A stretch of DNA of 64,000 nt from NCBI RefSeq assembly GCF_003334315.1, contig NZ_QOWR01000009.1, one strand, 5' to 3'. The notes beneath the pieces were generated by a model. It ran no database searches. It was not told where the DNA came from and saw only the letters and a list, made by a program, of their open reading frames with translations. The translations under genes and the position numbers were made by a program. Shown one piece after another: positions 4,771 through 37,054 of this stretch. The DNA is from Escherichia coli (GTDB lineage Bacteria > Pseudomonadota > Gammaproteobacteria > Enterobacterales > Enterobacteriaceae). The first letter of the stretch is position 1. Each line of letters starts with the position of its first letter.

Positions 4771-7700
4771 ATGAGACACTTTATCTATCAGGACGAAAAA
4801 TCACATAAATTCTGGGCGGTGGAGCAACAGGGAAACGAGTTGCATATCAGTTGGGGAAAAGTTGGCACCAAAGGGCAAAGTCAGATAAAAAGTTTTTCAG
4901 ATGCTGCGGCAGCGGAAAAAGCGGAACTTAAGCTGATTGCGGAGAAGGTGAAGAAGGGGTATGTGGAGCAAGCGAAGGATAATTCTTTGCAACCTTCCCA
5001 AACGGTAACGGGCTCTCTCAAGGTAGCGGACTTATCCACCATTATTCAGGAACAACCCTCTTTCGTAGCAGAAACCCGTGCGCCTGACAAAAATACAGAT
5101 GCTGTTTTACCGTGGCTGGCGAAAGATATTGCTGTCGTTTTTCCGCCCGAAGTTGTACACACCACGTTAAGTCATCGCCGCTTTCCCGGAGTTCCTGTTC
5201 AGCAAGCAGACAAATTGACCCAATTACGTCGCTTAGCCTGTAGTGTGTCGCAACGGGATAATAAAACAGCCACATTTGACTTCAGCGCCTGTTCTTTAGA
5301 ATGGCAAAACACCGTCGCCCAGGCGATCAGTCAGATCGACGGCCTGAAAACAACACAGTTACCATCACCAGTAATGGCTGTACTCACGGCACTTGAAATG
5401 AAATGCACAAGATATAAAGTGCGTGAGGATGTTATGGATCAGATCGTCCAGGAAGGCGGTCTGGAATATGCTACTGATGTAATAATACACCTTCAACAGA
5501 TTGATATTGAATGGGATTATGCGAATAATGTCATTATTATTCTGCCGTCTGGCATTGCACCTAGCTACTTGGAGCAATATTCCAGATTTGAATTACGCCT
5601 ACGTAAACATTTATCACTGACGGAAGAGTCTCTCTGGCAAAAATGTGCACAAAAACTTATTGCCGCAATTCCACATATTCCAGAATGGCGGCAACCATTA
5701 ATTGCTTTGTTATTACCCGAAAAACCAGAAATTGCACATGAAATTGCCCAGCGTCTACTGGGGCAAAAAAAATTACCCTCGCTTGAGTGGTTAAAAATAG
5801 TGGCGACTGATGAGCACATTCTTGCCTCATTAGAAAAATATCACGAACCATATGCCATTTTTGATGATTACTATTGTGGTGCGATATGGTCAGCCACCGT
5901 ATTACAGGAGCAAGGTGTTGCAGCCCTGCCCCGATTTGCTCCCTATGCCGCAAGTGACTACTGCGCCGATGTGTTGCGTCATATCAATCATCCGTTCGCA
6001 TTGACACTGCTTATACGTGTAGCCGGGCAAACTAAACGCTGTCACGATCGGATGACGAAAGCCATTGCTGCGTTCCCACATGCAGCAATGGCGGCACTGA
6101 CGGAACTTCTTGGGCAAAAAGAAGAGAACAGTTGGCGCATTATGCTAATGACAATGCTTATCTCACAACCAGCACTGGCAGAACAGGTCATTCCCTGGCT
6201 CTCGACACCCGCAGTTGCCGTACTGAAATCATGCCAGCAACAACTGACACAGCCCTCAAACCATGCCAGCGCCGATCTACTGCCAGCCGTAGTAGTCTCC
6301 CCTCCCTGGCTTTCGAAAAAGAAAAAATCGCCGATTCCGGTGCTGGATTTAGCGCCATTAGGCATTGAGCCAATCTGTTATCTGACAGAAGAAATCAGTA
6401 ATCAACTTTTGGCGAAATATATCTGGTATTCAAAACACATCACGGTTAGCCATGAAGAAAGTACTACCAACCTGTTGGCAAGGATGGGTTTTCAACGACG
6501 GATCGCTGGTACATATATTAAAGCTCCCGAAGCGGTAGTTGAGGCATGGCTAAATGAAGATTATTCAACCTTACTAAGTGAATTTAAGGTGTTTCATTCA
6601 CCTACCGGGCATTATTGGCAGTTGGGGATTTTGACAACATTGCCGCTGGAGAAAGCAGTAAAAGCATGGAATGCCCTTACCCTATCTCCACATACCGATA
6701 CCGAATACTCCATGTTACATTTTGGACTCAAAGGGTTACCTGGGTTAGTAAACTCACTTGCACGCTATCCACAAGAAGCCTTGCCCATCACGAATTACTT
6801 CGCAGCGAGTGAGCTGGCTCCTGCCGTCGCCCGTGCCTTCAACAAACTGAAAACGCTACGCGAAAACGCCCGTAGCTGGCTGTTGAAATACCCGGAACAT
6901 GCCCTTACCGGCCTGCTGCCTGCGGCGCTCGGCAAAGCCGGTGAAGCACAGGATAACGCCCGCGCTGCCTTGCGTATGCTTACCGAAAACGGTCATCAGC
7001 CATTACTGCAAGAAATCGCCCGACGTTATAACCAGCCGGAAGTAACCGATGCGGTGAACGCTCTGCTTGCGCTCGATCCCTTAGATAATCACCCGACAAA
7101 AATCCCCACTCTTCCGGCCTTTTATCAGCCATCGCTCTGGACGCGCCCGGTATTAAAAGCAAATGCCCAATCACTGCCAGATAGCGCCCTCCTCCACCTC
7201 GGTGAAATGCTCCGCTTCCCTCAGGAAGAGGCTCTGTATCCGGGATTATTGCAGGTGAAAGACGTCTGTTCCGCCGACTCACTGGCGGGATTTGCCTGGG
7301 ATCTGTTTACCGCCTGGCAGACCGCTGGCGCGCCGTCGAAAGAGAGTTGGGCGTTCACTGCGTTAGGCGTTCTCGGTAACGATGACACCGCCCGCAAACT
7401 GACGCCATTAATACGCGCCTGGCCTGGTGAATCCCAGCATAAACGCGCCACCGTTGGGTTGGATATTCTCGCTGCTATCGGTAGTGATATCGCCCTTATG
7501 CAGCTTAACGGCATCGCCCAGAAACTGAAATTCAAAGCATTACAGGAGCGGGCAAAAGAAAAAATTGCCGACATTGCCGAGAGCCGCGAACTCACGGTGG
7601 CGGAGCTTGAAGATCGGTTAGCACCGGATCTCGGTCTGGATGATAACGGTTCGCTGCTGCTGGATTTTGGCCCACGGCAGTTCACCGTCAGCTTTGATGA

Positions 7701-8565
7701 AACCTTAAAACCGTTTGTGCGTGATGTTTCCGGCAGCCGCCTGAAGGACCTGCCCAAACCGAACAAAAGCGATGATGAAACGCGGGCGAACGATGCGGTT
7801 AACCGCTACAAATTGCTGAAAAAAGATGCGCGTACCATCGCCGCCCAGCAGGTAGCAAGGCTGGAATCCGCCATGTGCCTGCGCCGCCGCTGGTCGCTGG
7901 AAAACTTCCAGCTCTTCCTGGTTGAGCATCCGCTGGTTCGTCACTTAACCCGCCGTCTGATTTGGGGCGTTTATAGCGCCGAAAACCAGCTACTGGCTTG
8001 CTTTCGCGTAGCAGAAGATAACAGCTCCAGCACCGCTGACGATGATCTTTTCACCCTGCCGGAAGGCGATATCTCTATCGGCACTCCTCACGTTCTGGAA
8101 ATATCACCAACGGATGCTGCCGCCTTTGGTCAGCTTTTTGCCGACTACGAACTGCTACCACCGTTCCGCCAGCTCGACCGTAACAGCTACGCCCTGACAG
8201 AAGCCGAGCGCAATGCCAGTGAACTGACCCGCTGGGCAGGCAGAAAATGCCCGAGTGGTCGGGTCATGGGGCTGGCGAATAAAGGCTGGATAAAGGGCGA
8301 ACCACAGGATGGAGGCTGGATCGGATGGATGATCAAACCTTTGGGTCGCTGGTCGTTAATCATGGAAATCGATGAAGGCTTTGCGGTAGGCATGTCGCCA
8401 GCCGAACTCAGCGCTGAGCAGCTCTTAAGCAAGCTGTGGCTATGGGAAGGCAAAGCAGAAAGATATGGCTGGGGGAGTAATTCAACACAGGAAGCGCAGT
8501 TCTCCGTAATCGATGCCATCACCGCCAGCGAGCTAATTAACGATATTGAAGCCCTGTTTGAATAA
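4771..8565 (+). CDS. yehH: Large MolR-like protein with N-terminal WGR domain (1264 aa), intact
   Basis: Single uninterrupted ORF; N-terminus MRHFIYQDEKSHKFWAVEQQGNELHISWGKVGTKGQ shows the W-G-K/R signature of WGR domains; remainder paralogous to downstream YehI. Confidence 0.85.
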   Translation: MRHFIYQDEKSHKFWAVEQQGNELHISWGKVGTKGQSQIKSFSDAAAAEKAELKLIAEKVKKGYVEQAKDNSLQPSQTVTGSLKVADLSTIIQEQPSFVAETRAPDKNTDAVLPWLAKDIAVVFPPEVVHTTLSHRRFPGVPVQQADKLTQLRRLACSVSQRDNKTATFDFSACSLEWQNTVAQAISQIDGLKTTQLPSPVMAVLTALEMKCTRYKVREDVMDQIVQEGGLEYATDVIIHLQQIDIEWDYANNVIIILPSGIAPSYLEQYSRFELRLRKHLSLTEESLWQKCAQKLIAAIPHIPEWRQPLIALLLPEKPEIAHEIAQRLLGQKKLPSLEWLKIVATDEHILASLEKYHEPYAIFDDYYCGAIWSATVLQEQGVAALPRFAPYAASDYCADVLRHINHPFALTLLIRVAGQTKRCHDRMTKAIAAFPHAAMAALTELLGQKEENSWRIMLMTMLISQPALAEQVIPWLSTPAVAVLKSCQQQLTQPSNHASADLLPAVVVSPPWLSKKKKSPIPVLDLAPLGIEPICYLTEEISNQLLAKYIWYSKHITVSHEESTTNLLARMGFQRRIAGTYIKAPEAVVEAWLNEDYSTLLSEFKVFHSPTGHYWQLGILTTLPLEKAVKAWNALTLSPHTDTEYSMLHFGLKGLPGLVNSLARYPQEALPITNYFAASELAPAVARAFNKLKTLRENARSWLLKYPEHALTGLLPAALGKAGEAQDNARAALRMLTENGHQPLLQEIARRYNQPEVTDAVNALLALDPLDNHPTKIPTLPAFYQPSLWTRPVLKANAQSLPDSALLHLGEMLRFPQEEALYPGLLQVKDVCSADSLAGFAWDLFTAWQTAGAPSKESWAFTALGVLGNDDTARKLTPLIRAWPGESQHKRATVGLDILAAIGSDIALMQLNGIAQKLKFKALQERAKEKIADIAESRELTVAELEDRLAPDLGLDDNGSLLLDFGPRQFTVSFDETLKPFVRDVSGSRLKDLPKPNKSDDETRANDAVNRYKLLKKDARTIAAQQVARLESAMCLRRRWSLENFQLFLVEHPLVRHLTRRLIWGVYSAENQLLACFRVAEDNSSSTADDDLFTLPEGDISIGTPHVLEISPTDAAAFGQLFADYELLPPFRQLDRNSYALTEAERNASELTRWAGRKCPSGRVMGLANKGWIKGEPQDGGWIGWMIKPLGRWSLIMEIDEGFAVGMSPAELSAEQLLSKLWLWEGKAERYGWGSNSTQEAQFSVIDAITASELINDIEALFE

Positions 8566-8574
8566 GGAAAGAGC

Positions 8575-11500
8575 ATGGACAAGGAATTACCGTGGCTGGC
8601 GGATAACGCCCAACTGGAACTGAAATATAAAAAAGGCAAAACGCCGCTCAGTCATCGTCGCTGGCCGGGCGAACCAGTGTCCGTTATCACTGGAAGTCTC
8701 ATCCAGACATTGGGTGATGAATTGCTACAAAAAGCTGAGAAGAAAAAAAACATTGTCTGGCGTTATGAGAATTTTTCACTGGAGTGGCAGTCCGCCATCA
8801 CGCAGGCCATCAACTTGATCGGCGAACACAAACCCTCAATCCCGGACCGGACAATGGCGGCGCTAGCCTGTATCGCGCAAAATGACAGCCAACAGTTGCT
8901 CGACGAAATCGTCCAACAAGAGGGGCTGGAATATGCGACTGAGGTGGTGATTGCACGCCAGTTTATTGCGCGGTGTTATGAGAGTGATCCTCTGGTAGTG
9001 ACATTGCAGTATCAGGACGAGGATTATGGCTATGGTTATCGCTCAGAAACCTATAACGAATTCGATCTCCGACTGCGTAAGCATCTCTCTCTGGCAGAGG
9101 AAAGCTGCTGGCAGCGTTGCGCCGACAAACTCATTGCCGCACTACCAGGAATAACCAAAGTTCGCCGCCCTTTTATTGCGCTGATCCTCCCGGAAAAACC
9201 AGAAATAGCCAATGAGTTGGTAGGCCTTGAATGCCCGCGAACTCATTTTCATTCTAAGGAGTGGTTAAAAGTTGTTGCTAATGACCCCACAGCGGTGAGA
9301 AAACTCGAACACTACTGGAGCCAGGATATATTTAGCGATCGAGAAGCCAGCTACATGTCGCATGAAAACCACTTCGGCTACGCGGCCTGCGCCGCCCTTT
9401 TGCGCGAACAAGGACTGGCAGCCATTCCGCGCCTCGCGATGTATGCCCATAAAGAAGATTGCGGCAGTCTGCTGGTACAAATTAACCATCCGCAAGTCAT
9501 CCGCACCTTGCTACTGGTGGCTGATAAAAACAAACCCAGCCTGCAACGTGTAGCTAAATACCATAAAAACTTCCCCCATGCGACGCTCGCCGCACTGGCA
9601 GAACTGCTGGCGTTAACAGAACCACCAGCCCGCCCTGGTTATCCAATCATCGAAGACAAAAAGCTGCCTGCACAGCAAAAAGCACGCGATGAATACTGGC
9701 GTACGCTGTTACAAACGCTGATGGCATCGCAGCCACAACTGGCAGCAGAAGTGATGCCGTGGTTAAGTACTCAACCCCAGTCAGTGCTGAAGAGTTATTT
9801 ATCGGCACCGCCCAAACCGGTTATTGATGGCACCGATAACAGCAATCTGCCAGAAATCCTCGTTTCACCACCGTGGCGTAGTAAGAAAAAAATGACAGCT
9901 CCACGTCTTGATTTGGCACCGCTCGAATTAACTCCGCAAGTTTACTGGCAACCAGGCGAACAAGAGAGGCTTGCCGCCACTGAGCCTGCCCGTTATTTCA
10001 GCACGGAATCTCTTGCGCAACGCATGGAACAAAAAAGTGGACGAGTTGTATTACAGGAACTGGGTTTTGGGGATGATGTATGGCTGTTTCTGAATTATAT
10101 ACTCCCCGGAAAACTGGATGCTGCACGCAATTCACTCTTTGTTCAGTGGCATTACTACCAGGGGCGGGTTGAAGAGATCCTGAATGGCTGGAACTCCCCG
10201 GAAGCACAATTAGCAGAACAGGCGCTCCGCAGCGGTCACATAGAAGCGTTAATTAACATATGGGAAAATGACAACTACTCACATTATCGTCCGGAAAAGA
10301 GTGTCTGGAACCTGTATTTATTGGCACAGTTGCCGCGTGAGATGGCTTTGACCTTCTGGCTGCGTATCAATGAGAAAAAGCATCTGTTCGCGGGTGAGGA
10401 CTATTTTCTCAGTATCCTCGGATTGGATGCGCTACCAGGTCTGCTGTTGGCTTTTTCACATCGTCCAAAAGAAACATTTCCGTTAATTTTAAATTTTGGC
10501 GCAACAGAACTGGCGCTGCCTGTTGCCCACGTCTGGCGACGTTTCGCGGCGCAGCGTGATCTGGCTCGCCAGTGGATTTTACAATGGCCGGAACATACGG
10601 CTAGTGCACTTATCCCTCTTGTCTTTACCAAACCCAGCGATAATAGCGAAGCCGCATTACTTGCCCTGCGTTTACTGTACGAACAGGGACATGGCGAATT
10701 GCTACAAACCGTGGCAAACCGCTGGCAGCGTACAGATGTATGGTCTGCCCTGGAGCAGTTGCTTAAACAGGGTCCAATGGACATTTACCCGGCACGCATT
10801 CCAAAAGCCCCTGATTTCTGGCATCCGCAAATGTGGTCCAGGCCGCGCCTTATCACTAATAATCAAACTGTTACCAATGACGCTCTGGAAATTATCGGCG
10901 AAATGCTGCGCTTTACCCAGGGGGGACGTTTTTATAGCGGGCTGGAACAACTGAAAACGTTCTGCCAGCCACAAACGCTGACAGCTTTTGCCTGGGATCT
11001 CTTCACTGCGTGGCAACAAGCTGGTGCCCCCGCAAAAGACAACTGGGCATTTCTGGCGTTAAGTCTCTTTGGTGACGAAAGCACGGCACGGGATCTGACG
11101 ACACAGATCCTCGCCTGGCCACAAGAAGGCAAATCTGCCCGTGCTGTCAGCGGCCTGAACATCCTTACCCTGATGAATAATGATATGGCGCTGATACAGC
11201 TGCATCATATATCGCAACGGGCTAAATCCCGCCCCTTACGTGATAACGCGGCGGAATTTCTTCAGGTGGTCGCAGAAAATCGCGGGCTAAGCCAGGAAGA
11301 GCTAGCGGACAGATTAGTCCCAACCCTGGGCCTTGATGATCCGCAGGCGTTGAGTTTTGATTTTGGTCCCCGGCAGTTTACCGTTCGCTTCGATGAAAAT
11401 CTCAACCCGGTTATCTTTGATCAGCAAAACGTTCGCCAGAAAAGCGTTCCCCGTTTGCGCGCCGATGACGATCAACTGAAAGCGCCCGAGGCACTGGCCC

Positions 11501-12207
11501 GACTAAAAGGGCTAAAAAAAGATGCTACTCAGGTGAGCAAAAACCTGCTCCCGCGTCTTGAAACGGCCCTACGTACCACCCGACGCTGGTCGCTGGCAGA
11601 TTTTCATTCTCTGTTTGTTAATCATCCCTTTACCCGTCTGGTTACCCAGCGATTAATATGGGGGGTTTATCCGGCAAATGAACCGCGTTGTTTACTCAAA
11701 GCCTTTCGTGTGGCCGCAGAGGGGGAGTTCTGCAATGCGCAAGATGAGCCAATTGACCTGCCTGCGGACGCTCTGATTGGCATTGCCCACCCGTTAGAAA
11801 TGACAGCAGAAATGCGCAGTGAATTTGCACAGCTTTTTGCCGATTACGAAATTATGCCGCCTTTTCGCCAGTTGTCGCGCCGCACGGTGCTGCTCACACC
11901 TGACGAGTCAACCAGTAACAGCCTGACTCGCTGGGAAGGTAAATCCGCTACCGTTGGGCAACTTATGGGAATGCGATACAAAGGCTGGGAGTCAGGCTAT
12001 GAGGACGCATTTGTCTATAACCTGGGTGAGTACCGGCTGGTCCTTAAGTTTTCACCCGGTTTTAACCACTACAATGTTGATAGCAAAGCGCTAATGAGCT
12101 TCCGTTCTCTTCGAGTGTACCGTGACAATAAATCCGTCACTTTTGCCGAACTTGATGTGTTTGATTTGAGTGAGGCGTTAAGCGCACCTGACGTCATTTT
12201 CCATTAA
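8575..12207 (+). CDS. yehI: Large uncharacterised protein YehI (1210 aa), paralogue of YehH lacking the WGR N-terminus
   Basis: ORF 8575..12207, 1210 aa; extensive colinear similarity with YehH (e.g. DLRLRKHLSLAEES..., SPPWRSKKK, FAWDLFTAWQQAGAP, FDFGPRQFTV, FAQLFADYEIMPPFRQL). Confidence 0.85.
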   Translation: MDKELPWLADNAQLELKYKKGKTPLSHRRWPGEPVSVITGSLIQTLGDELLQKAEKKKNIVWRYENFSLEWQSAITQAINLIGEHKPSIPDRTMAALACIAQNDSQQLLDEIVQQEGLEYATEVVIARQFIARCYESDPLVVTLQYQDEDYGYGYRSETYNEFDLRLRKHLSLAEESCWQRCADKLIAALPGITKVRRPFIALILPEKPEIANELVGLECPRTHFHSKEWLKVVANDPTAVRKLEHYWSQDIFSDREASYMSHENHFGYAACAALLREQGLAAIPRLAMYAHKEDCGSLLVQINHPQVIRTLLLVADKNKPSLQRVAKYHKNFPHATLAALAELLALTEPPARPGYPIIEDKKLPAQQKARDEYWRTLLQTLMASQPQLAAEVMPWLSTQPQSVLKSYLSAPPKPVIDGTDNSNLPEILVSPPWRSKKKMTAPRLDLAPLELTPQVYWQPGEQERLAATEPARYFSTESLAQRMEQKSGRVVLQELGFGDDVWLFLNYILPGKLDAARNSLFVQWHYYQGRVEEILNGWNSPEAQLAEQALRSGHIEALINIWENDNYSHYRPEKSVWNLYLLAQLPREMALTFWLRINEKKHLFAGEDYFLSILGLDALPGLLLAFSHRPKETFPLILNFGATELALPVAHVWRRFAAQRDLARQWILQWPEHTASALIPLVFTKPSDNSEAALLALRLLYEQGHGELLQTVANRWQRTDVWSALEQLLKQGPMDIYPARIPKAPDFWHPQMWSRPRLITNNQTVTNDALEIIGEMLRFTQGGRFYSGLEQLKTFCQPQTLTAFAWDLFTAWQQAGAPAKDNWAFLALSLFGDESTARDLTTQILAWPQEGKSARAVSGLNILTLMNNDMALIQLHHISQRAKSRPLRDNAAEFLQVVAENRGLSQEELADRLVPTLGLDDPQALSFDFGPRQFTVRFDENLNPVIFDQQNVRQKSVPRLRADDDQLKAPEALARLKGLKKDATQVSKNLLPRLETALRTTRRWSLADFHSLFVNHPFTRLVTQRLIWGVYPANEPRCLLKAFRVAAEGEFCNAQDEPIDLPADALIGIAHPLEMTAEMRSEFAQLFADYEIMPPFRQLSRRTVLLTPDESTSNSLTRWEGKSATVGQLMGMRYKGWESGYEDAFVYNLGEYRLVLKFSPGFNHYNVDSKALMSFRSLRVYRDNKSVTFAELDVFDLSEALSAPDVIFH

Positions 12208-12267
12208 AACACAGCGGGCAGTGATGCAACTGCCCGTTATCAACACGACTTACCAGCGGGGAAAGCG

Positions 12268-12585
12268 ATGATCGTGCAAAAAGAGCTGGTTGCTATTTAC
12301 GATTATGAGGTCCCTGTACCTGAAGATCCGTTTTCCTTCAGACTTGAGATCCATAAATGCTCTGAATTATTTACAGGTTCCGTCTATCGACTGGAGCGAT
12401 TCCGGCTACGTCCAACATTTCATCAACGTGATCGAGAAGATGCTGACCCGCTAATAAATGATGCGTTGATTTATATAAGAGATGAGTGTATTGATGAGCG
12501 GAAATTACGAGGTGAATCACCTGAAACTGTAATAGCAATTTTTAATCGTGAACTACAGAATATATTCAACCAAGAAATAGAATAA
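12268..12585 (+). CDS. yehK: Small uncharacterised protein YehK (105 aa)
   Basis: ORF 12268..12585 preceded by RBS-like gggaaagcg; AT-richer than flanking genes. Confidence 0.65.
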   Translation: MIVQKELVAIYDYEVPVPEDPFSFRLEIHKCSELFTGSVYRLERFRLRPTFHQRDREDADPLINDALIYIRDECIDERKLRGESPETVIAIFNRELQNIFNQEIE

Positions 12586-12662
12586 TATACTCTAAATAAT
12601 TCAAATTGGTCCGATCCGGCGCACCGTCCCAATGGCCTGGATTATAAATCTCATTATCTTAA

Positions 12663-12691
12663 TTGCAACGGGGTCCAGCCGTGGTTATAAT
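12663..12691 (+). promoter_or_regulatory. Near-consensus sigma70-type promoter (TTGCAA - 17 bp - TATAAT)
   Basis: -35 ttgcaa 12663-12668, 17-bp spacer, perfect -10 tataat 12686-12691. Confidence 0.4.
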
Positions 12692-12756
12692 TCGTTCGTT
12701 GGAACACGATGTTGCACAGGCTGTGGTGTTAGGCCTGAAAATAGTAAATAAAAGAA

Positions 12757-12781
12757 CCTGCCTCACCAGCAGGTTTTTTTA
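12757..12781 (+). terminator. Intrinsic terminator in yehK-yehL intergenic region
   Basis: Stem cctgc / gcagg with loop ctcacca (12757-12773) followed by 8 T (12774-12781). Confidence 0.5.
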
Positions 12782-12891
12782 TTTACTGTGATCTGCTTTC
12801 CAGATATTTTTCGCTCAAACAACTAATGCGCCAAACATTTATTGCGCGTAAAATATCGTTTATTTCATTAATACATTTCAGGGATGAATAT

Positions 12892-13979
12892 ATGTCACCG
12901 CAGAATAATCATCTGCAGCGTCCGCCTGCTGCTGTGTTATACGCCGATGAACTGGCAAAATTAAAACAAAATGATAACGCACCTTGCCCGCCCGGTTGGC
13001 AGTTAAGTTTGCCTGCGGCCCGTGCTTTTATCCTTGGCGACGAAGCGCAAAATATCAGCCGTAAAGTGGTGATTAGCCCCTCCGCTGTCGAACGTATGTT
13101 AGTCACTCTTGCTACCGGCCGCGGTTTGATGTTGGTGGGGGAACCGGGTACCGCAAAATCTCTTCTTTCTGAATTACTGGCAACCGCTATTAGCGGCGAT
13201 GCCGGGTTAACCATCCAGGGCGGGGCATCTACCACCGAAGATCAAATCAAGTATGGCTGGAACTACGCCCTGCTTATCAATCATGGTCCGTCAACGGAAG
13301 CGCTGGTCCCTGCCCCGCTTTATCAGGGAATGCGCGACGGCAAAATCGTCCGTTTCGAAGAGATAACGCGTACACCGCTGGAAGTGCAGGACTGTCTGTT
13401 AGGTATGCTTTCTGACAGGGTGATGACGGTGCCGGAACTCACTGGTGAAGCCAGTCAGCTCTATGCGCGAGAAGGCTTTAATATTATTGCCACTGCCAAT
13501 ACCCGCGATCGCGGCGTCAATGAAATGAGTGCTGCGCTAAAGCGTCGCTTCGATTTTGAAACGGTTTTTCCGATTATGGATTTCGCCCAGGAGTTGGAAC
13601 TGGTCGCCAGTGCTTCGGCGCGTTTGCTGGCCCATAGCGGTATTCCGCATAAAGTGCCTGACGCGGTACTGGAATTACTGGTCCGCACCTTCCGCGATCT
13701 GCGTGCCAACGGCGAAAAGAAAACGTCAATGGATACACTGACAGCGATTATGTCCACCGCTGAAGCCGTGAACGTGCCCATGCTGTGGGCGTCCGCGCCT
13801 GGTTTTTAGCGAATCGCGCGGGGGAGCCTGCCGACCTGGTGGAATGTATTGCCGGAACCATCGTCAAAGATAACGAAGAAGATCGCGCGCGTCTGCGCCG
13901 TTACTTCGAACAGCGTGTCGCCACACATAAAGAAGCTCACTGGCAGGCTTATTATCAAGCCCGCCACCGCCTGCCGTGA
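12892..13979 (+). pseudogene. yehL: MoxR-type AAA+ ATPase YehL, disrupted by apparent 1-nt deletion (frame A ends at TAG 13807-13809; remainder continues in -1 frame to 13979)
   Basis: ORF 12826..13809 trimmed to MSPQNNH at 12892; Walker A LVGEPGTAKS (~13138-13161). The -1 frame is open from 13764 to TGA 13977-13979; joined length equals 362 codons, matching my recollection of K-12 YehL. T5 run at 13803-13807 is the likely indel site. Confidence 0.6.
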
Positions 13980-13989
13980 GGAAAGATGC

Positions 13990-16269
13990 ATGAGCGAGCC
14001 GTTAATTGTCGGCATCCGGCATCATAGTCCGGCCTGCGCCCGGCTGGTGAAATCGTTAATCGAAAGCCAGCGGCCACGATACGTGTTGATTGAAGGCCCG
14101 GCTGATTTTAATGACCGGGTAGACGAACTGTTTTTAGCCCACCAGCTTCCGGTAGCTATTTACAGTTATTGCCAGTATCAGGACGGTGCAGCCCCCGGGC
14201 GTGGTGCCTGGACGCCATTTGCTGAATTTTCGCCGGAGTGGCAGGCGCTACAAGCCGCACGTCGCATTCAGGCACAAACTTACTTCATCGATTTGCCTTG
14301 CTGGGCGCAGAGTGAAGAAGAGGACGATTCGCCTGATACGCAAGATGAAAGCCAGGCCTTACTGCTGCGTGCCACCCGCATGGATAACAGCGATACCCTG
14401 TGGGATCACTTGTTCGAAGATGAAAGCCAGCAAACTGCATTACCCTCTGCGCTGGCGCACTATTTTGCCCAACTGCGGGGCGACGCCTCCGGCGATGCGC
14501 TCAATCGTCAGCGCGAAGCCTTTATGGCCCGCTGGATTGGATGGGCGATGCAGCAAAATAATGGCGACGTGTTAGTTGTCTGCGGTGGCTGGCACGCTCC
14601 GGCACTGGCAAAGATGTGGCGCGAATGCCCTCAGAAAATTAACAAGCCAGAATTGCCCTCGCTGGCAGATGCCGTTACAGGTTGTTATCTCACACCCTAC
14701 AGTGAAAAGCGCCTTGATGTGCTGGCAGGATACCTTTCAGGAATGCCTGCCCCGGTATGGCAAAACTGGTGCTGGCAGTGGGGCTTGCAGAAGGCCGGTG
14801 AACAACTGCTAAAAACTATCCTTACCCGTTTGCGCCAGCACAAATTGCCCGCTTCTACCGCGGATATGGCTGCCGCTCATCTGCATGCGATGGCGCTGGC
14901 ACAGTTGCGCGGTCATACACTACCGTTACGCACTGACTGGCTGGATGCCATAGCAGGCTCGCTGATTAAAGAAGCCCTGAACGCGCCGTTGCCGTGGAGC
15001 TATCGCGGCGTTATTCATCCCGATACCGATCCGATTCTGCTAACGTTGATAGACACATTAGCGGGTGACGGATTCGGTAAACTTGCCCCTTCTACGCCAC
15101 AACCGCCTCTGCCAAAAGATGTCACCTGCGAACTGGAACGTACCGCAATCTCCCTTCCGGCGGAGCTTACCTTAAATCGCTTTACCCCCGATGGGCTGGC
15201 GCAAAGTCAGGTGTTACATCGGCTGGCAATACTGGAGATCCCTGGGATTGTACGCCAGCAGGGAAGTACACTGACACTTGCAGGCAACGGTGAAGAACGC
15301 TGGAAATTAACCCGCCCGCTTAGCCAGCATGCGGCATTGATTGAGGCCGCCTGTTTTGGTGCCACACTCTAGGAAGCCGCACGCAATAAATTAGAAGCCG
15401 ATATGCTGGACGCGGGCGGAATCGGCAGTATCACCACATGTCTTAGCCAGGAGGCGTTAGCGGGTCTGGCGTCCTTCAGTCAACAATTACTGGAGCAACT
15501 CACACTATTAATCGCCCAGGAAAATCAATTTGCCGAAATGGGCCAGGCGCTGGAAGTGCTTTATGCCTTATGGCGGCTGGATGAAATTAGCGGTATGCAA
15601 GGCGCGCAGATATTACAAACGACGTTATGCGCGACTATCGATCGCACGCTGTGGCTGTGTGAATCTAACGGCAGACCGGATGAAAAGGAGTTTCACGCTC
15701 ACCTGCATAGCTGGCAAGCGCTTTGCCATATTCTGCGCGATCTACATAGCGGCGTTAATTTACCCGGCGTTTCTCTTTCTGCGGCGGTAGCCTTACTGGA
15801 GCGACGCAGTCAGGCAATTCATGCCCCGGCGCTGGATCGCGGCGCGGCTCTTGGCGCACTAATGCGTCTGGAACATCCCAACGCCAGTGCCGAAGCGGCG
15901 CTGACGATGCTGGCGCAGTTATCCCCGGCACAATCTGGTGAGGCGCTGCACGGTTTGCTGGCGCTGGCCCGCCATCAACTGGCCTGTCAGCCGGCATTTA
16001 TCGCCGGTTTCAGCAGTCATTTAAATCAACTGAGTGAAGCCGATTTTATTAACGCCCTGCCCGATTTACGCGCGGCGATGGCCTGGCTACCACCACGAGA
16101 ACGCGGGACGCTGGCGCATCAGGTGCTTGAGCATTATCAACTGGCGCAACTTCCCGTTTCGGCGCTGCAAATGCCGTTGCATTGTCCACCACAGGCCATT
16201 GCACATCATCAACAACTCGAACAGCAGGCACTGGCATCGCTGCAAAACTGGGGAGTTTTCCATGTCTGA
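13990..16269 (+). pseudogene. yehM: Large uncharacterised protein YehM with in-frame amber codon (TAG 15370-15372); two ORF halves 13990..15372 and 15373..16269 in the same frame
   Basis: ORFs 13849..15372 and 15403..16269 are in the same reading frame separated only by TAG; read-through length 759 codons equals my recollection of K-12 YehM. Start at MSEPLIVGIRHHSP (13990). Confidence 0.6.
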
Positions 16270-17398
16270 ACTGAACGATCTTCTGACCACCCGTGAGCTA
16301 CAACGCTGGCGATTAATTCTTGGCGAAGCGGCAGAAACGACGCTTTGTGGGCTGGATGACAACGCCCGGCAGATAGACCACGCGCTGGAGTGGCTGTATG
16401 GGCGCGATCCTGAACGGCTCCAGCGTGGTGAACGTTCCGGTGGATTAGGTGGCTCAAATCTCACCACCCCTGAGTGGATCAACAGTATTCACACGCTGTT
16501 TCCGCAGCAGGTGATTGAGCGGCTGGAAAGCGATGCCGTGCTGCGCTACGGCATTGAAGATGTGGTGACGAATCTCGACGTGCTGGAACGTATGCAGCCT
16601 TCTGAAAGCCTGCTACGCGCTGTTTTGCACACCAAACATCTGATGAACCCCGAAGTACTGGCTGCCGCCCGCCGGATAGTGTGCCAGGTTGTTGAAGAAA
16701 TTATGGCTCGACTGGCAAAGGAAGTTCGTCAGGCTTTTTCTGGTGTCCGCGATCGCCGTCGCCGTTCATTTATTCCACTGGCGCGAAACTTTGATTTCAA
16801 AAGTACTCTGCGCGCCAACCTGCAACACTGGCACCCGCAACACGGCAAGTTGTATATCGAATCCCCCCGCTTTAACAGCCGCATTAAACGCCAAAGCGAA
16901 CAATGGCAACTGGTCTTACTGGTTGATCAAAGCGGATCGATGGTCGATTCGGTGATCCACTCTGCGGTGATGGCGGCCTGTTTGTGGCAGTTACCCGGCA
17001 TTCGTACCCATCTGGTGGCGTTTGACACAAGCGTCGTTGATCTCACGGCAGACGTTGCCGATCCGGTAGAGTTATTAATGAAAGTACAGTTGGGCGGCGG
17101 GACCAATATCGCCAGTGCCGTGGAGTATGGTCGGCAACTTATTGAACAACCAGCGAAAAGCGTCATTATCCTCGTGAGCGATTTTTACGAAGGGGGTTCA
17201 TCATCATTACTGACGCATCAGGTGAAAAAGTGTGTCCAGAGCGGCATCAAAGTGCTGGGACTGGCAGCGCTCGATAGCACCGCAACACCTTGCTATGACC
17301 GCGATACGGCCCAGGCGCTGGTTAATGTCGGCGCACAAATAGCCGCCATGACGCCGGGCGAGCTGGCATCATGGCTTGCGGAGAATCTTCAGTCATGA
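16262..17398 (+). CDS. yehP: von Willebrand factor A (vWA) domain protein YehP (378 aa)
   Basis: ORF trimmed to MSELNDLLTTRELQRW at 16262 (ATG 8 nt upstream of the yehM stop); MIDAS-like motif DQSGS (~16925-16939). Confidence 0.88.
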   Translation: MSELNDLLTTRELQRWRLILGEAAETTLCGLDDNARQIDHALEWLYGRDPERLQRGERSGGLGGSNLTTPEWINSIHTLFPQQVIERLESDAVLRYGIEDVVTNLDVLERMQPSESLLRAVLHTKHLMNPEVLAAARRIVCQVVEEIMARLAKEVRQAFSGVRDRRRRSFIPLARNFDFKSTLRANLQHWHPQHGKLYIESPRFNSRIKRQSEQWQLVLLVDQSGSMVDSVIHSAVMAACLWQLPGIRTHLVAFDTSVVDLTADVADPVELLMKVQLGGGTNIASAVEYGRQLIEQPAKSVIILVSDFYEGGSSSLLTHQVKKCVQSGIKVLGLAALDSTATPCYDRDTAQALVNVGAQIAAMTPGELASWLAENLQS

Positions 17399-19395
17399 AT
17401 TCACTACGTCCGGAATTATTAGAACTGACACCGCAGGCCCTGACGGCGTTAAGCAATGCCGGTTTTGTTAAGCGCAGTCTTAAGGAACTGGAAAATGGCA
17501 ACGTCCCGGAGATCAGCCATGAGAACGACGCTTTAATCGCCACCTTCAGTGACGGTGTCCGTACCCAGCTGGCGAACGGCCAGGCACTGAAAGAGGCTCA
17601 GTGCAGTTGCGGGGCCAACGGTATGTGCCGTCATCGCGTGATGCTGGTGTTAAGTTATCAACGACTTTGTGCCACCACTCAGTCTACGGAAAAAGAAGAA
17701 GAGTGGGATCCGGCAATCTGGCTGGAAGAACTGGCTACCCTTCCCGATGCTACCCGCAAACGCGCACAGGCGCTGGTCGCTAAAGGCATCACCATTGAGT
17801 TGTTCTGTGCGCCGGGTGAAATTCCCTCTGCCCGCTTACCGATGAGCGATGTGCGTTTTTATTCCCGCAGCAGTATTCGTTTCGCCCGTTGTGATTGTAT
17901 TGAAGGCACACTTTGCGAACATGTCGTACTGGCGGTACAGGCCTTCGTCGAGGCCAAAGCGCAGCAAGCAGAATTTAACCATTTAATCTGGCAGATGCGC
18001 AGCGAACACGTCACATCATCTGACGATCCGTTTGCCAGCGAAGAAGGCAACGCGTGTCGTCAATATGTTCAGCAATTAAGCCAGACATTATGGCTTGGCG
18101 GCATCAGCCAGCCGCTCATCCATTACGAGGCAGCATTCAACCGCGCATTGCAGGCGGCAGAGACCTGCAACTGGCGCTGGGTGAGTGAATCGCTACGGCA
18201 ACTGCGCGCCAGCGTTGATGCCTTCCACGCCCGCGCCAGCCACTATAATGCCGGAGAATGCTTACATCAGCTTGCGGCATTAAACAGTCGATTAAATTGC
18301 GCACAAGAGATGGCCCGGCGCGACAGTATTGGTGAAGTTCCTCCTGTGCCGTGGCGCACGGTCGTTGGCTCTGGCATTGCCGGAGAAGCAAAGCTTGATC
18401 ATCTGCGGCTGGTGTCTTTAGGTATGCGTTGCTGGCAGGATATTGAGCATTATGGTTTACGCATCTGGTTTACCGATCCCGACACCGGCAGTATTTTGCA
18501 CCTTTCGCGCAGTTGGCCGCGAAGTGAACAGGAAAACTCACCGGCAGCTACGCGTCGGCTGTTTAGTTTTCAGGCTGGCGCACTGGCGGGCGGGCAAATT
18601 GTTTCACAAGCAGCAAAACGCAGTGCCGATGGCGAGCTGCTGTTAGCTACCCGCAACCGCTTAAGCAGCGTTGTGCCGCTGTCGCCTGATGCCTGGCAAA
18701 TGTTGAGCGCGCCGTTACGCCAGCCGGGCATTGTGGCTTTGCGGGAATATTTACGCCAGCGTCCCCCCGCCTGCATACGGCCTCTTAATCAGGTCGATAA
18801 CTTATTTATTCTGCCGGTCGCTGAGTGTATTTCGCTCGGTTGGGACAGCAGCCGCCAGACGCTGGATGCGCAGGTCATTAGCGGCGAAGGGGAAGATAAT
18901 GTGCTGACGTTATCATTACCAGCCTCAGCCAGCGCACCTTATGCCGTTGAACGCATGGCGGTGCTTTTGCAACAAACAGACGACCCCGTGTGTCTGGTTT
19001 CTGGCTTTGTCAGTTTTGTTGAAGGGCAATTGACACTGGAACCACGGGTGATGATGACAAAAACCCGTGCCTGGGCGCTGGACGCAGAAACTACGCCTGT
19101 GGCACCGCTACCTTCTGCCAGCGTTTTGCCTGTGCCGTCTACTGCTCATCAGTTGCTGATACGCTGCCAGGCGTTACTTATTCAACTGCTCCATAACGGC
19201 TGGCGCTATCAGGAACAGAGTGCTATTGGTCAGGCAGAGTTGCTGGCGAATGACCTCACCGCGGTGGGTTTTTATCGGCTGGCACATGTGTTGGGACAAT
19301 TTCGTAATACAGAAAGCGAGGCACGGGTAGAAGCAATGAATAACGGTGTTTTGCTTTGCGAACAATTATTCCCCATGCTTCAGCAACAAGGATGA
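17395..19395 (+). CDS. yehQ: SWIM zinc-finger protein YehQ
   Basis: ORF trimmed to MNSLRPELLEL at 17395 (ATGA overlap with yehP stop); two CxCx5CxH motifs: CSCGANGMCRH and CDCIEGTLCEH. Confidence 0.85.
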   Translation: MNSLRPELLELTPQALTALSNAGFVKRSLKELENGNVPEISHENDALIATFSDGVRTQLANGQALKEAQCSCGANGMCRHRVMLVLSYQRLCATTQSTEKEEEWDPAIWLEELATLPDATRKRAQALVAKGITIELFCAPGEIPSARLPMSDVRFYSRSSIRFARCDCIEGTLCEHVVLAVQAFVEAKAQQAEFNHLIWQMRSEHVTSSDDPFASEEGNACRQYVQQLSQTLWLGGISQPLIHYEAAFNRALQAAETCNWRWVSESLRQLRASVDAFHARASHYNAGECLHQLAALNSRLNCAQEMARRDSIGEVPPVPWRTVVGSGIAGEAKLDHLRLVSLGMRCWQDIEHYGLRIWFTDPDTGSILHLSRSWPRSEQENSPAATRRLFSFQAGALAGGQIVSQAAKRSADGELLLATRNRLSSVVPLSPDAWQMLSAPLRQPGIVALREYLRQRPPACIRPLNQVDNLFILPVAECISLGWDSSRQTLDAQVISGEGEDNVLTLSLPASASAPYAVERMAVLLQQTDDPVCLVSGFVSFVEGQLTLEPRVMMTKTRAWALDAETTPVAPLPSASVLPVPSTAHQLLIRCQALLIQLLHNGWRYQEQSAIGQAELLANDLTAVGFYRLAHVLGQFRNTESEARVEAMNNGVLLCEQLFPMLQQQG

Positions 19396-35617: not shown

Positions 35618-37054
35618 TCAGCGTTTGTAACCCCCGCCCAACGCACCAGTGAGTTGAATGGAGGCATCCAGCCACTGCCCTTGCAATAACAGGCCATTGG
35701 CCCGCTCACGCAGCGCGGGGATTCTGGCTTCGCTGACGCGGGAACCAGCAATGATGCCCGCGTTAAAGCGCGCCTGCGCAAGACCTACCACACGCAAGGC
35801 ATCGCGCTCAATTTGCGCCTGATGCTGGTTTTTCTCCGCCAGTGTCTGAACCTGACTGGCTGCCCGCGCCACGTCATTCACCGCTTCAACCACCGCTTTG
35901 TTGTAGCTGGCGATAGACAAGTTGCTTTCGGCTTTTGCGATATCGAGATTGGCGTTAAGACGACCACTATCGAAAATGGGTAGCGTCAGGCCTGCCGTAA
36001 CGCCCATTTGCTGCGCGGAATGACGGAACAGATCGCTTAAGTGCAACGCATCCTGTTGCAGGAAGGCCATCAGGTTGATGTCAGGATAAAATGCCGCTTT
36101 TGCCGCATCAATGGTGCTTAGCGATGACTCAACGTACCAGTGCGCCGCCTGCAAATCTGCCCGCCGGGCCAGTAAGGAGTACCCCAGTTCATCAGGAAGC
36201 TGGCTTGCCACTTTCGGCAACGCGACCGGTTTAAGCTTCAATGACTTTGTCTGGTTATTTGTAAGTGCGCTTAACCGTGCCTCAATAATTTTCATTTTCC
36301 CCGCGACATCGTTGAGCTGCTGCCGGGTTTTGCTGGCATTAATATCGGTTTCCACACCTTCAACTGAAGAAGTAATCCCGTTCTGATATAGCTGGCGATC
36401 GGTCGCGATAATGGTGTTCTGCTCTTTTTCTATTTGCTGCAAGACCGTGTTTAACGCCGCCTGGGTTTGCCACTCCCAGTACAGGCGGGCTACGCTGCCA
36501 GCCAGCAATTGGCGGGTTTGCTCGCGTTCCGCCGCCCGTGCTTTAACCGTACCCAGGCGGGCAGTAACCTCCGCCCGATTCTTTCCCCAGATATCGAGAT
36601 GCCAGCCCGCCGTTAAGCCAAAAGTACCGTTGGTGTACCACGGGCCGGTCGTACCTGCGGCCGGATCGTTCAGAGCAAACGGCCCCATTAAGCCTTCTGC
36701 CGACATTTTTTGCCGCTCCATATCCGCCGAAAAGTCGATCTGCGGACCATCCTGAGTGGCAACTGCCTTCGCCTGGGCTTCAGCTAGCTGAATGCGCTGT
36801 TCAGCCACCTGCATATCCGGTGCGTTCTGTAGTGCATTGTTAATTAAGGAAGTGAGTTGATTATCGTGATACTCCAGCCACCATTGGCTGTCTGGCCAAC
36901 CATTTTTCAGCGCCGTGGGTAATGCGGTGTCAACTTGTGCAGCGGGCGTTTGCTGGCTTAACGCCTGGCGGGTTTCATGCATAGGCGCACACCCGGCCAG
37001 CATCAGTAACAGCGGAAAACAGGCGATGGCTGGATAAAAGGAATCACGATTCAT
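35618..37054 (-). CDS. mdtQ: Outer-membrane efflux lipoprotein MdtQ (478 aa), intact
   Basis: ORF trimmed to MNRDSFYPAIACFPLLLMLAGCAP (lipobox). Confidence 0.8.
   Translation of the reverse strand: MNRDSFYPAIACFPLLLMLAGCAPMHETRQALSQQTPAAQVDTALPTALKNGWPDSQWWLEYHDNQLTSLINNALQNAPDMQVAEQRIQLAEAQAKAVATQDGPQIDFSADMERQKMSAEGLMGPFALNDPAAGTTGPWYTNGTFGLTAGWHLDIWGKNRAEVTARLGTVKARAAEREQTRQLLAGSVARLYWEWQTQAALNTVLQQIEKEQNTIIATDRQLYQNGITSSVEGVETDINASKTRQQLNDVAGKMKIIEARLSALTNNQTKSLKLKPVALPKVASQLPDELGYSLLARRADLQAAHWYVESSLSTIDAAKAAFYPDINLMAFLQQDALHLSDLFRHSAQQMGVTAGLTLPIFDSGRLNANLDIAKAESNLSIASYNKAVVEAVNDVARAASQVQTLAEKNQHQAQIERDALRVVGLAQARFNAGIIAGSRVSEARIPALRERANGLLLQGQWLDASIQLTGALGGGYKR

Follow-up and report, generated by a model that had tools for sequence, protein, structure and literature searches.

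The yeh cluster of Escherichia coli, which consists of a molR-like gene, yehI, yehK, yehL, yehM, yehP and yehQ, raises the question of why different strains carry different broken genes in it. We examined this question from a stretch of 64,000 nucleotides of contig NZ_QOWR01000009.1 (RefSeq assembly GCF_003334315.1), which is called the window below. An earlier inspection of this DNA, made without database searches (the sequence-only reading), had pointed out that the molR-like gene is intact and that yehL and yehM are broken in the window, and that K-12 shows the reverse. It proposed that the parts of the locus are knocked out reciprocally, as would be expected of a costly or auto-toxic conflict system whose parts are tolerated only when the system is incomplete. 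Our analysis instead suggests that the window holds a recently and sequentially decayed copy of a conserved, conditionally dispensable and repeatedly lost system. We give this explanation a probability of roughly 0.72.

The window is E. coli chromosome with the gene order yehE-apbC-metG-[yeh cluster]-yehR ... rihB, and a 13-kb query from it matched all 5,426 of 5,426 complete RefSeq E. coli genomes. The best-matching complete genome was that of strain CUPF12 (NZ_CP182159.1), which is 99.9% identical to the window and in which the DUF4132 gene (the molR-like gene), yehI, yehK, yehL, yehM, yehP and yehQ are all intact according to the Prokaryotic Genome Annotation Pipeline (PGAP). Compared base by base, the two sequences differ at 14 positions in the first 21 kb and at 23 in the 43 kb that follow, and only two of these differences destroy a gene. 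The first is in yehL, where a GG pair has been reduced to a single G at position 13776. That is, the reading frame shifts after codon 295 and ends at a stop codon at 13807-13809, so that the product has 305 amino acids compared with 362 and the last 67 residues of the ATPase are missing. The second is in yehM, where a C-to-T change at 15370 converts codon 461 from CAG to the amber codon TAG (Q461*); gene callers consequently split yehM into fragments of 460 and 288 amino acids, the second being at 15403-16269. The other 49 of the 51 genes compared across the window were intact without exception. The window molR-like protein does not differ in any residue from the intact CUPF12 protein WP_001215617.1, and YehI differs from its CUPF12 counterpart by one amino acid. 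The open reading frame map and the comparison with CUPF12 thus bore out the observation from which the sequence-only reading started.

Both lesions are real and private to the lineage of the window. A 71-bp probe centered on the yehL deletion and another centered on yehM Q461* each had 0 exact matches in the 5,426 complete RefSeq E. coli genomes. The exact 460-residue YehM fragment was found in 44 index blocks, corresponding to at least 27 contigs of independent assemblies named E. coli by NCBI, and one contig derived from the Sequence Read Archive (L026) was 100% identical to window positions 10990-18372, with both lesions included. Sequencing error was ruled out as the cause of the lesions, because both recur in independent assemblies. 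Among the relatives with the yehM stop, yehL is full length (362 amino acids) in L027-L030, and the 305-residue form is present in L026 and 15 similar places. Because some relatives with the yehM stop keep yehL intact and a subset has both lesions, the yehM stop is the older lesion, and the yehL frameshift was added in a sub-lineage. The decay seen in the window is ordinary sequential decay following a first hit, and for the window alone the result is an ordinary one, namely two private pseudogenes.

We then compared the window with K-12. The state of K-12 on which the sequence-only reading was based, with molR/yehH as a pseudogene and yehL and yehM intact, agreed with the annotation of MG1655, in which yehF is a coding sequence (CDS), yehH is a pseudogene, and yehI, yehK, yehL, yehM and yehP are intact. 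The window molR-like gene is orthologous to this yehF/yehH (molR) pseudogene. Alignment of the K-12 locus with the window (99.66% identity) located a TTA-to-TGA change in molR (L275*, window position 5594), a frameshift by an additional G at molR codon 949 (window 7616) and, in addition to what that reading had described, a GAG-to-TAG change in yehQ (E615*, window 19237, position 16942 of the K-12 locus) by which 52 residues are lost. The truncated yehQ of K-12 is annotated as a normal CDS in RefSeq. With exact probes, molR L275* was found in 706 genomes, some of them natural isolates of human, cattle, mink or water origin, and the molR frameshift and yehQ E615* were found in 352 and 351 genomes, respectively, which are K-12 derivatives. 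The decay in K-12 was therefore also stepwise: molR L275* came first, and the molR frameshift and yehQ E615* came later. K-12 is thus a natural multiple mutant, with molR broken twice and yehQ truncated, and its first lesion is common to about 13% of complete genomes. Genetic studies in K-12 cannot show what the yeh system does, and the intact alleles, such as those of CUPF12, O104:H4 2011C-3493 and KFu014, are the ones to study.

In order to clarify how the locus fares in the species, the whole locus was used as a search query, and 24 complete genomes were taken at roughly regular intervals from the resulting similarity ranking. They were picked before their status was known, and lesions in the molR-like gene, yehI, yehK, yehL, yehM, yehP and yehQ were read from PGAP flags. 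The window, K-12, the six yehM lesions, USMARC-51408, PSJ-16 and the molR lesion of O111:H8 were checked at the level of DNA or translation, and the other calls are PGAP flags. At least one lesion was found in 17 of the 24 genomes (71%; 95% confidence interval 49-87%), and the broken fraction was 62% when the cases with a lesion in yehK only were left out. The locus was fully intact in the other 7 (CUWW10, MB22, 23CRST032, 23CRST025, KFu014, 2020CK-00188 and O104:H4 2011C-3493). Intact loci were seen in genomes nearly identical to the window (such as CUPF12) as well as among loci that are only 93-95% identical to it.

The lesions in the 17 broken loci were varied. The molR-like gene carries a stop in WG5::PA2 and PSJ-16 (L275*, verified in PSJ-16), L275* together with a yehI frameshift in USMARC-51408, and S465* together with a yehQ frameshift in O111:H8. 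There is a yehI stop in ACN001 and AR144.2, a yehI frameshift with a yehL stop in 042, a yehP frameshift in OkiPb01700, a yehM frameshift in 1919D3, and a frameshift and a stop in yehQ of O104:H21. EC21Z-151 has a yehL frameshift and yehM S224*, SCU-306 has a yehK frameshift and a 7-bp deletion in yehM, and 2020S05-235 and Nissle 1917 have the yehK frameshift only. Strain 133, which has an O157:H7-type locus, has two broken DUF4132 paralogues and yehM Q510*. UID2309220007 has a deletion from yehI to yehM together with W262*. Finally, in KTa005 the whole locus is absent, with IS1 in its place. Because KTa005 lacks the whole cluster, the yeh cluster is dispensable for growth. The interval from the molR-like gene to yehR is gone in this strain (L024, 12001-12822), and a single IS1 lies between metG and yehS. 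In Shigella sonnei, a deletion of about 7 kb has been reported to remove yehL and yehM from lineages 2 and 3 (PMC12795559).

When distinct sites and genes were counted, about 24 independent events were found in 26 genomes. Nonsense mutations account for at least 11 of them; there are also deletions, and in one case the whole locus was lost in association with IS1. No two of the six yehM lesions share a site. Exact-match counts showed that yehM null alleles form clades: Q510* was present in 299 genomes (including O157:H7), S224* in 215 and one frameshift in 38. That is, the lesions mark clades and are not assembly noise. For 10 genomes with flanks of 9-20 kb, in which the yehABCD fimbrial operon is among the flanking genes, we compared the frequency of pseudogenes inside and outside the cluster. 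Of 74 yeh CDS, 14 were pseudogenes, compared with a single one among about 286 CDS of the flanks, prophage genes being left out (Fisher p = 1e-9). Expressed as density, the roughly 24 events fall in about 15 kb of yeh DNA, and almost none fall in about 30 kb of flanks. The yeh cluster is a species-wide hot spot of independent loss-of-function mutations. The survey which the sequence-only reading had called for thus upheld its claim that different lineages have knocked out different components, and the breakage is both varied and recurrent. It gave no mutual exclusion: about a third of the loci are fully intact. The distribution of the lesions over the genes fits gene length (chi-square p = 0.35), no gene being preferred, and 10 of 19 broken loci, among them K-12 (molR and yehQ) and the window (yehL and yehM), have lesions in at least two yeh genes.

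The intact copies were examined for signs of selection by comparing the intact loci of CUPF12 and KFu014. The ratio of nonsynonymous to synonymous substitutions (dN/dS, Nei-Gojobori method) was 0.046 for yehL, 0.075 for yehP, 0.079 for yehQ, 0.12 for yehM, 0.15 for yehK, 0.19 for yehI and 0.27 for the molR-like gene. The pooled ratio of nonsynonymous to synonymous differences (pN/pS) in the same pair was 0.21 for the yeh genes, compared with 0.042 for 17 flanking genes. These values indicate that the intact yeh genes are under purifying selection and that the locus is probably functional where it is intact. Since a dS of about 0.15 over 14 kb would leave many stop codons in unconstrained sequence, the null alleles must for the most part be young. 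The molR-like gene (window 4771-8565) showed a dS of 0.31 against KFu014 (L025, 27201-30989), compared with about 0.1-0.2 in neighboring genes. This high value could have arisen if the DUF4132 paralogues have recombined or undergone gene conversion, or if the two genes are partly non-orthologous.

The sequence-only reading had treated the genes as components of one system, and comparison with other genera supports this. Pfam and NCBIfam identified WGR and DUF4132 domains in the molR-like protein, DUF4132 in YehI, AAA_5 in YehL, DUF5682 in YehM, VWA_CoxE/VWA_2 in YehP and two SWIM domains in YehQ; the NCBIfam scan gave weak domain-level matches only. The order WGR-DUF4132, AAA_5, DUF5682, VWA_CoxE and SWIM-like is syntenic in Serratia fonticola and Variovorax, where YehM identity is 46-48% and the neighborhoods are unrelated. 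Because the same five-gene cassette is syntenic in these two organisms, the molR-like gene belongs with yehL, yehM, yehP and yehQ. The small gene yehK is absent from the Serratia cassette and lies outside the cassette that is conserved beyond Enterobacteriaceae. The yeh locus is also present in E. fergusonii, E. albertii, E. marmotae and E. ruysiae, and homologues occur across Escherichia species, Klebsiella, Erwinia, Serratia, Massilia and others; the spread of the cassette is patchy over Gamma- and Betaproteobacteria. Member counts of protein clusters were used here qualitatively only and are not convertible to genome frequencies. In the sampled genomes, and across the genus, the cluster has a fixed position between metG and yehR and is no mobile island. 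YehM homologues were found on 38 of 72,556 plasmids, most of them non-mobilizable, and a search of 50,697 phage records for YehM homologues gave one weak partial match (27% identity).

The individual proteins offer some indications of function. In YehL, AAA_5 was found by Pfam on the 305-residue fragment, there are matches to midasin AAA modules and GvpN/MadB models, and the intact orthologue has the Walker A motif GEPGTAKS and an hhhFEE motif resembling Walker B. A sequence search of the PDB gave no close solved structure: YehL matched midasin AAA modules, the molR-like protein matched through its WGR domain only, and YehM and YehQ had no match. Residues 2-78 of the molR-like protein, at its N-terminus, match WGR-containing entries. 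The SWIM matches of YehQ cover residues 56-88 and 160-183 and contain the invariant residues C70/C72/C78/H80 and C166/C168/C174/H176; the model of YehQ was uninformative. For YehM, residues of about 1-240 (window 13990-14700) are predicted to adopt an alpha/beta fold like those of TraB, ChaN, HopBA1 and erythromycin esterase, and H11, E35 and H202 are invariant in 32 homologues. The prediction suggests that the N-terminal domain of this family, whose function is listed as unknown, may be a hydrolase. We take the fold to belong to what is called the TIKI/TraB/ChaN/erythromycin-esterase superfamily. YehM differs from this superfamily in that it has no detectable sequence match to it (Pfam gives DUF5682 only) and in that its N-terminal domain is joined to a long helical region of the HEAT type.

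YehL gives its name to one of seven MoxR subfamilies (PMC3893208). As in RavA-ViaA, NorQ-NorD, CbbQ-CbbO and CoxD-CoxE, the MoxR-type ATPase YehL has a VWA_CoxE partner, YehP. Its gene lies two genes upstream of yehP in a co-directional cluster, and the arrangement is the same in Serratia and Variovorax. By analogy with these pairs, YehL and YehP may remodel or activate a partner protein. In contrast to the characterized MoxR-vWA pairs, the partners in the yeh cluster are DUF5682, double SWIM and WGR-DUF4132 proteins and not the enzyme complexes that those pairs mature. Expression of the yeh genes is low or conditional. It has been reported that the repression of yehL and yehM is lifted in an hns/stpA mutant (PMC3686432) and that the molR promoter requires BglJ-RcsB (PMC3950696).

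We think that these findings are best explained as follows. The yeh cluster is a conserved system built around the MoxR-type ATPase YehL and its vWA partner YehP. A first hit would fall at a random position, and the other yeh genes would then decay neutrally. The set of lesions in a given genome is an accident of which gene was hit first, and the window, K-12, O157:H7, O111:H8, 042 and others arrived at theirs by separate routes. As the driver, we presume that purifying selection keeps the system in the long term and that, in many lineages or niches, losing it is neutral or slightly advantageous. Null alleles would then arise repeatedly and could spread with successful clones. The kinds of event resemble those in K-12 molR (yehF/yehH) and in other pseudogenes of E. 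coli and Shigella, which also arise by nonsense mutation, frameshift, deletion and insertion sequence (IS) events in a lineage-specific way. Unlike the usual pseudogenization, the lesion density in the yeh cluster is unusual and is found alongside clear purifying selection on the intact copies. Long-term purifying selection together with pervasive recent knock-outs would mean that the function is useful under some conditions and can be spared, or carries a cost, under others. The yeh locus may therefore be a good candidate for tests of antagonistic pleiotropy in a core-genome locus. The searchable literature yielded papers on regulation, the MoxR classification and the Shigella sonnei deletion, and no description of the yeh pseudogene pattern or function. 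We consider the species-level lesion pattern and the status of K-12 as a natural null, which we did not find described there, to be of moderate interest.

Several points weigh against this explanation. Neutral loss under relaxed selection and positive selection for loss are not distinguished by the data, and a real cost would explain the strong excess over the fimbrial operon and the large null clades just as well. With 24 genomes the sample is small, the collection from which it comes is clonally biased, and the figure of 71% ignores phylogeny. The lesion calls are mostly PGAP flags, and a few frameshifts, such as the A8-to-A7 change in yehI of USMARC-51408, could be assembly errors. The yehK "frameshift" of SCU-306, 2020S05-235 and Nissle 1917 may be a lineage allele. 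In addition, the dN/dS values were drawn from one pair of intact loci.

The alternative that survives best is that the cluster is a costly, as yet undescribed conflict system, directed for example against phages or mobile elements, of which the complete form is tolerated and the loss is selected when the threat is absent. In such a scheme a MoxR-vWA switch would gate the putative YehM hydrolase, and the WGR, SWIM and DUF4132 proteins would act as sensors. We regard this alternative as possible although unlikely. It would account for the loss-of-function hot spot, which is marked even in comparison with the adjacent yehABCD fimbrial operon, and for the null alleles that form clades of 200-700 genomes. 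The patchy distribution of the cassette, the variable number and fast evolution of the DUF4132 paralogues (dN/dS 0.19-0.27), the predicted esterase-like fold of the YehM N-terminus with its invariant His/Glu/His, and the type I toxin-antitoxin locus that lies inside the cluster in many strains would also be consistent with it. MoxR-vWA pairs have been proposed to gate other conflict systems, namely the MoxR-vWA-centered ternary systems described by Kaur, Burroughs, Iyer and Aravind in 2020 (PMC7159879), a paper in which "Yeh" occurs 0 times. Like those systems, the yeh cluster has a MoxR-vWA core, large conserved proteins, a patchy distribution and fast-evolving accessory genes. Unlike them, YehP (378 amino acids) carries vWA domains only, with no fused C-terminal effector, and E. 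coli is not a multicellular bacterium. Pfam detected no iSTAND, FtsH or beta-propeller third component in the yeh proteins, the libraries used being without a VMAP model. Furthermore, a scan with the hidden Markov models of PADLOC-DB v2 gave 0 families for all seven yeh proteins at E <= 0.01, and the fixed chromosomal position and the rarity on plasmids and in phage records speak against a conflict system as well. The reading as a costly conflict system, which is drawn from architecture and evolutionary pattern, is possible, with several features of such systems not found in the yeh proteins.

A more specific form of this idea is that the cluster is a chromosomally fixed conflict or stress-response system, in which a YehL-YehP switch would act on YehM as a TraB/esterase-like hydrolase, the WGR/DUF4132 and SWIM proteins would sense nucleic acids or proteins and exert control, and the cost would be large enough to select nulls repeatedly. 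We mention it as a speculation that is more doubtful still. If it were true, the natural null state of K-12 would explain why the function has never been found.

The proposal that the system is auto-toxic and tolerated only with at least one component broken, so that knock-outs are reciprocal and mutually exclusive, fared much worse. The contrast between the window (yehL and yehM) and K-12 (molR and yehQ) and the strong enrichment of lesions over the flanks would fit it. However, all genes are intact in 7 of 24 genomes and in CUPF12, and the intact copies, with dN/dS values of 0.05-0.27, are kept by selection. Because intact loci exist and 10 of 19 broken loci have lesions in more than one gene, with no gene preferred, there is neither reciprocity nor a tolerance limited to incomplete systems. 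We therefore consider this proposal highly improbable. The sequence-only reading was right in its observation and its interpretation is partly supported: "toxic unless incomplete" is not supported, and a costly conflict system is possible. Finally, errors of sequencing or assembly, or a local hot spot of mutation, could be suspected from some PGAP frameshifts in homopolymers (as in yehI of USMARC-51408). They are refuted for the window and for the lesions that we verified, and are scarcely credible as the general cause, given that both window lesions recur independently, that many events are nonsense substitutions hitting different codons or are deletions of several bases or with an IS involved, that lesions are common to clades of 38 to 706 genomes, and that no other gene compared in the window is broken.

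The features of the cluster are listed in Table 1. The number of DUF4132 paralogues is 2 or 3 per sampled E. coli locus and 1 in distant genera. The window, its close relatives and K-12 have two, and the molR-like gene of the window is paralogue 2. The window protein is 91% identical to paralogue 2 of EC21Z-151, annotated as "WGR and DUF4132", 44% identical to paralogue 1 and 37% identical to YehI. A third DUF4132 paralogue of about 1265 amino acids was seen in 6 sampled loci, between metG and the orthologue of the window molR-like gene. It is 44% identical to the molR-like gene, and its WGR N-terminus is nearly identical.

Table 1. Positions of the yeh cluster features in the window, and of the third DUF4132 paralogue in other sampled loci (L numbers)
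Feature	Position	Strand	Remarks
molR-like gene (WGR + DUF4132)	4771..8565	+	single open reading frame, 1264 amino acids, intact
yehI, DUF4132 paralogue without WGR domain	8575..12207	+	1210 amino acids, intact, Pfam DUF4132
yehK, small protein	12268..12585	+	105 amino acids, intact
OrzO-P-type antitoxin small RNA gene, yehK-yehL spacer	12705..12780	+	Rfam RF02083
yehL pseudogene (MoxR-type AAA+ ATPase, AAA_5)	12892..13979	+	1-bp deletion at 13776
yehM pseudogene (DUF5682), 759 codons	13990..16269	+	Q461* at 15370-15372
yehP, vWA protein (VWA_CoxE / VWA_2)	16262..17398	+	378 amino acids, intact
yehQ, two SWIM zinc fingers	17395..19395	+	666 amino acids, intact
third DUF4132 paralogue	L015 12180-15977; L018 13990-17787; L020 12183-15980; L023 8225-12034		

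The small RNA (sRNA) gene matched RF02083 over its full length with 99.9 bits, compared with a gathering score of 60. There is neither a zor toxin gene next to it in the window nor space for one: the position that zor has in O104:H4 falls inside the intact yehK here. O104:H4 has two complete zor-orz type I toxin-antitoxin units in the same place (L022, 27925-28943), and the yehK-yehL spacer is about 1 kb longer in several other sampled loci. The sRNA of the window thus appears to be an orphan antitoxin left after a deletion.

The similarity to CUPF12 stops at window position 63547, and the remaining sequence (63548-64000) reads by eye as an IS1 end, inserted in the yeiL-rihB intergenic region; yeiL of CUPF12 is a pseudogene with an internal stop. 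Because of this IS1 end, an origin from Shigella with genome-wide decay was considered. This idea was dropped, since the matching proteins carry the name E. coli, no more than two of the 51 genes compared are broken (49 intact) and a single IS is present. Lastly, mdtQ (window 35618-37054, minus strand), which is presumably a pseudogene in K-12, is intact with 478 codons in both the window and CUPF12.

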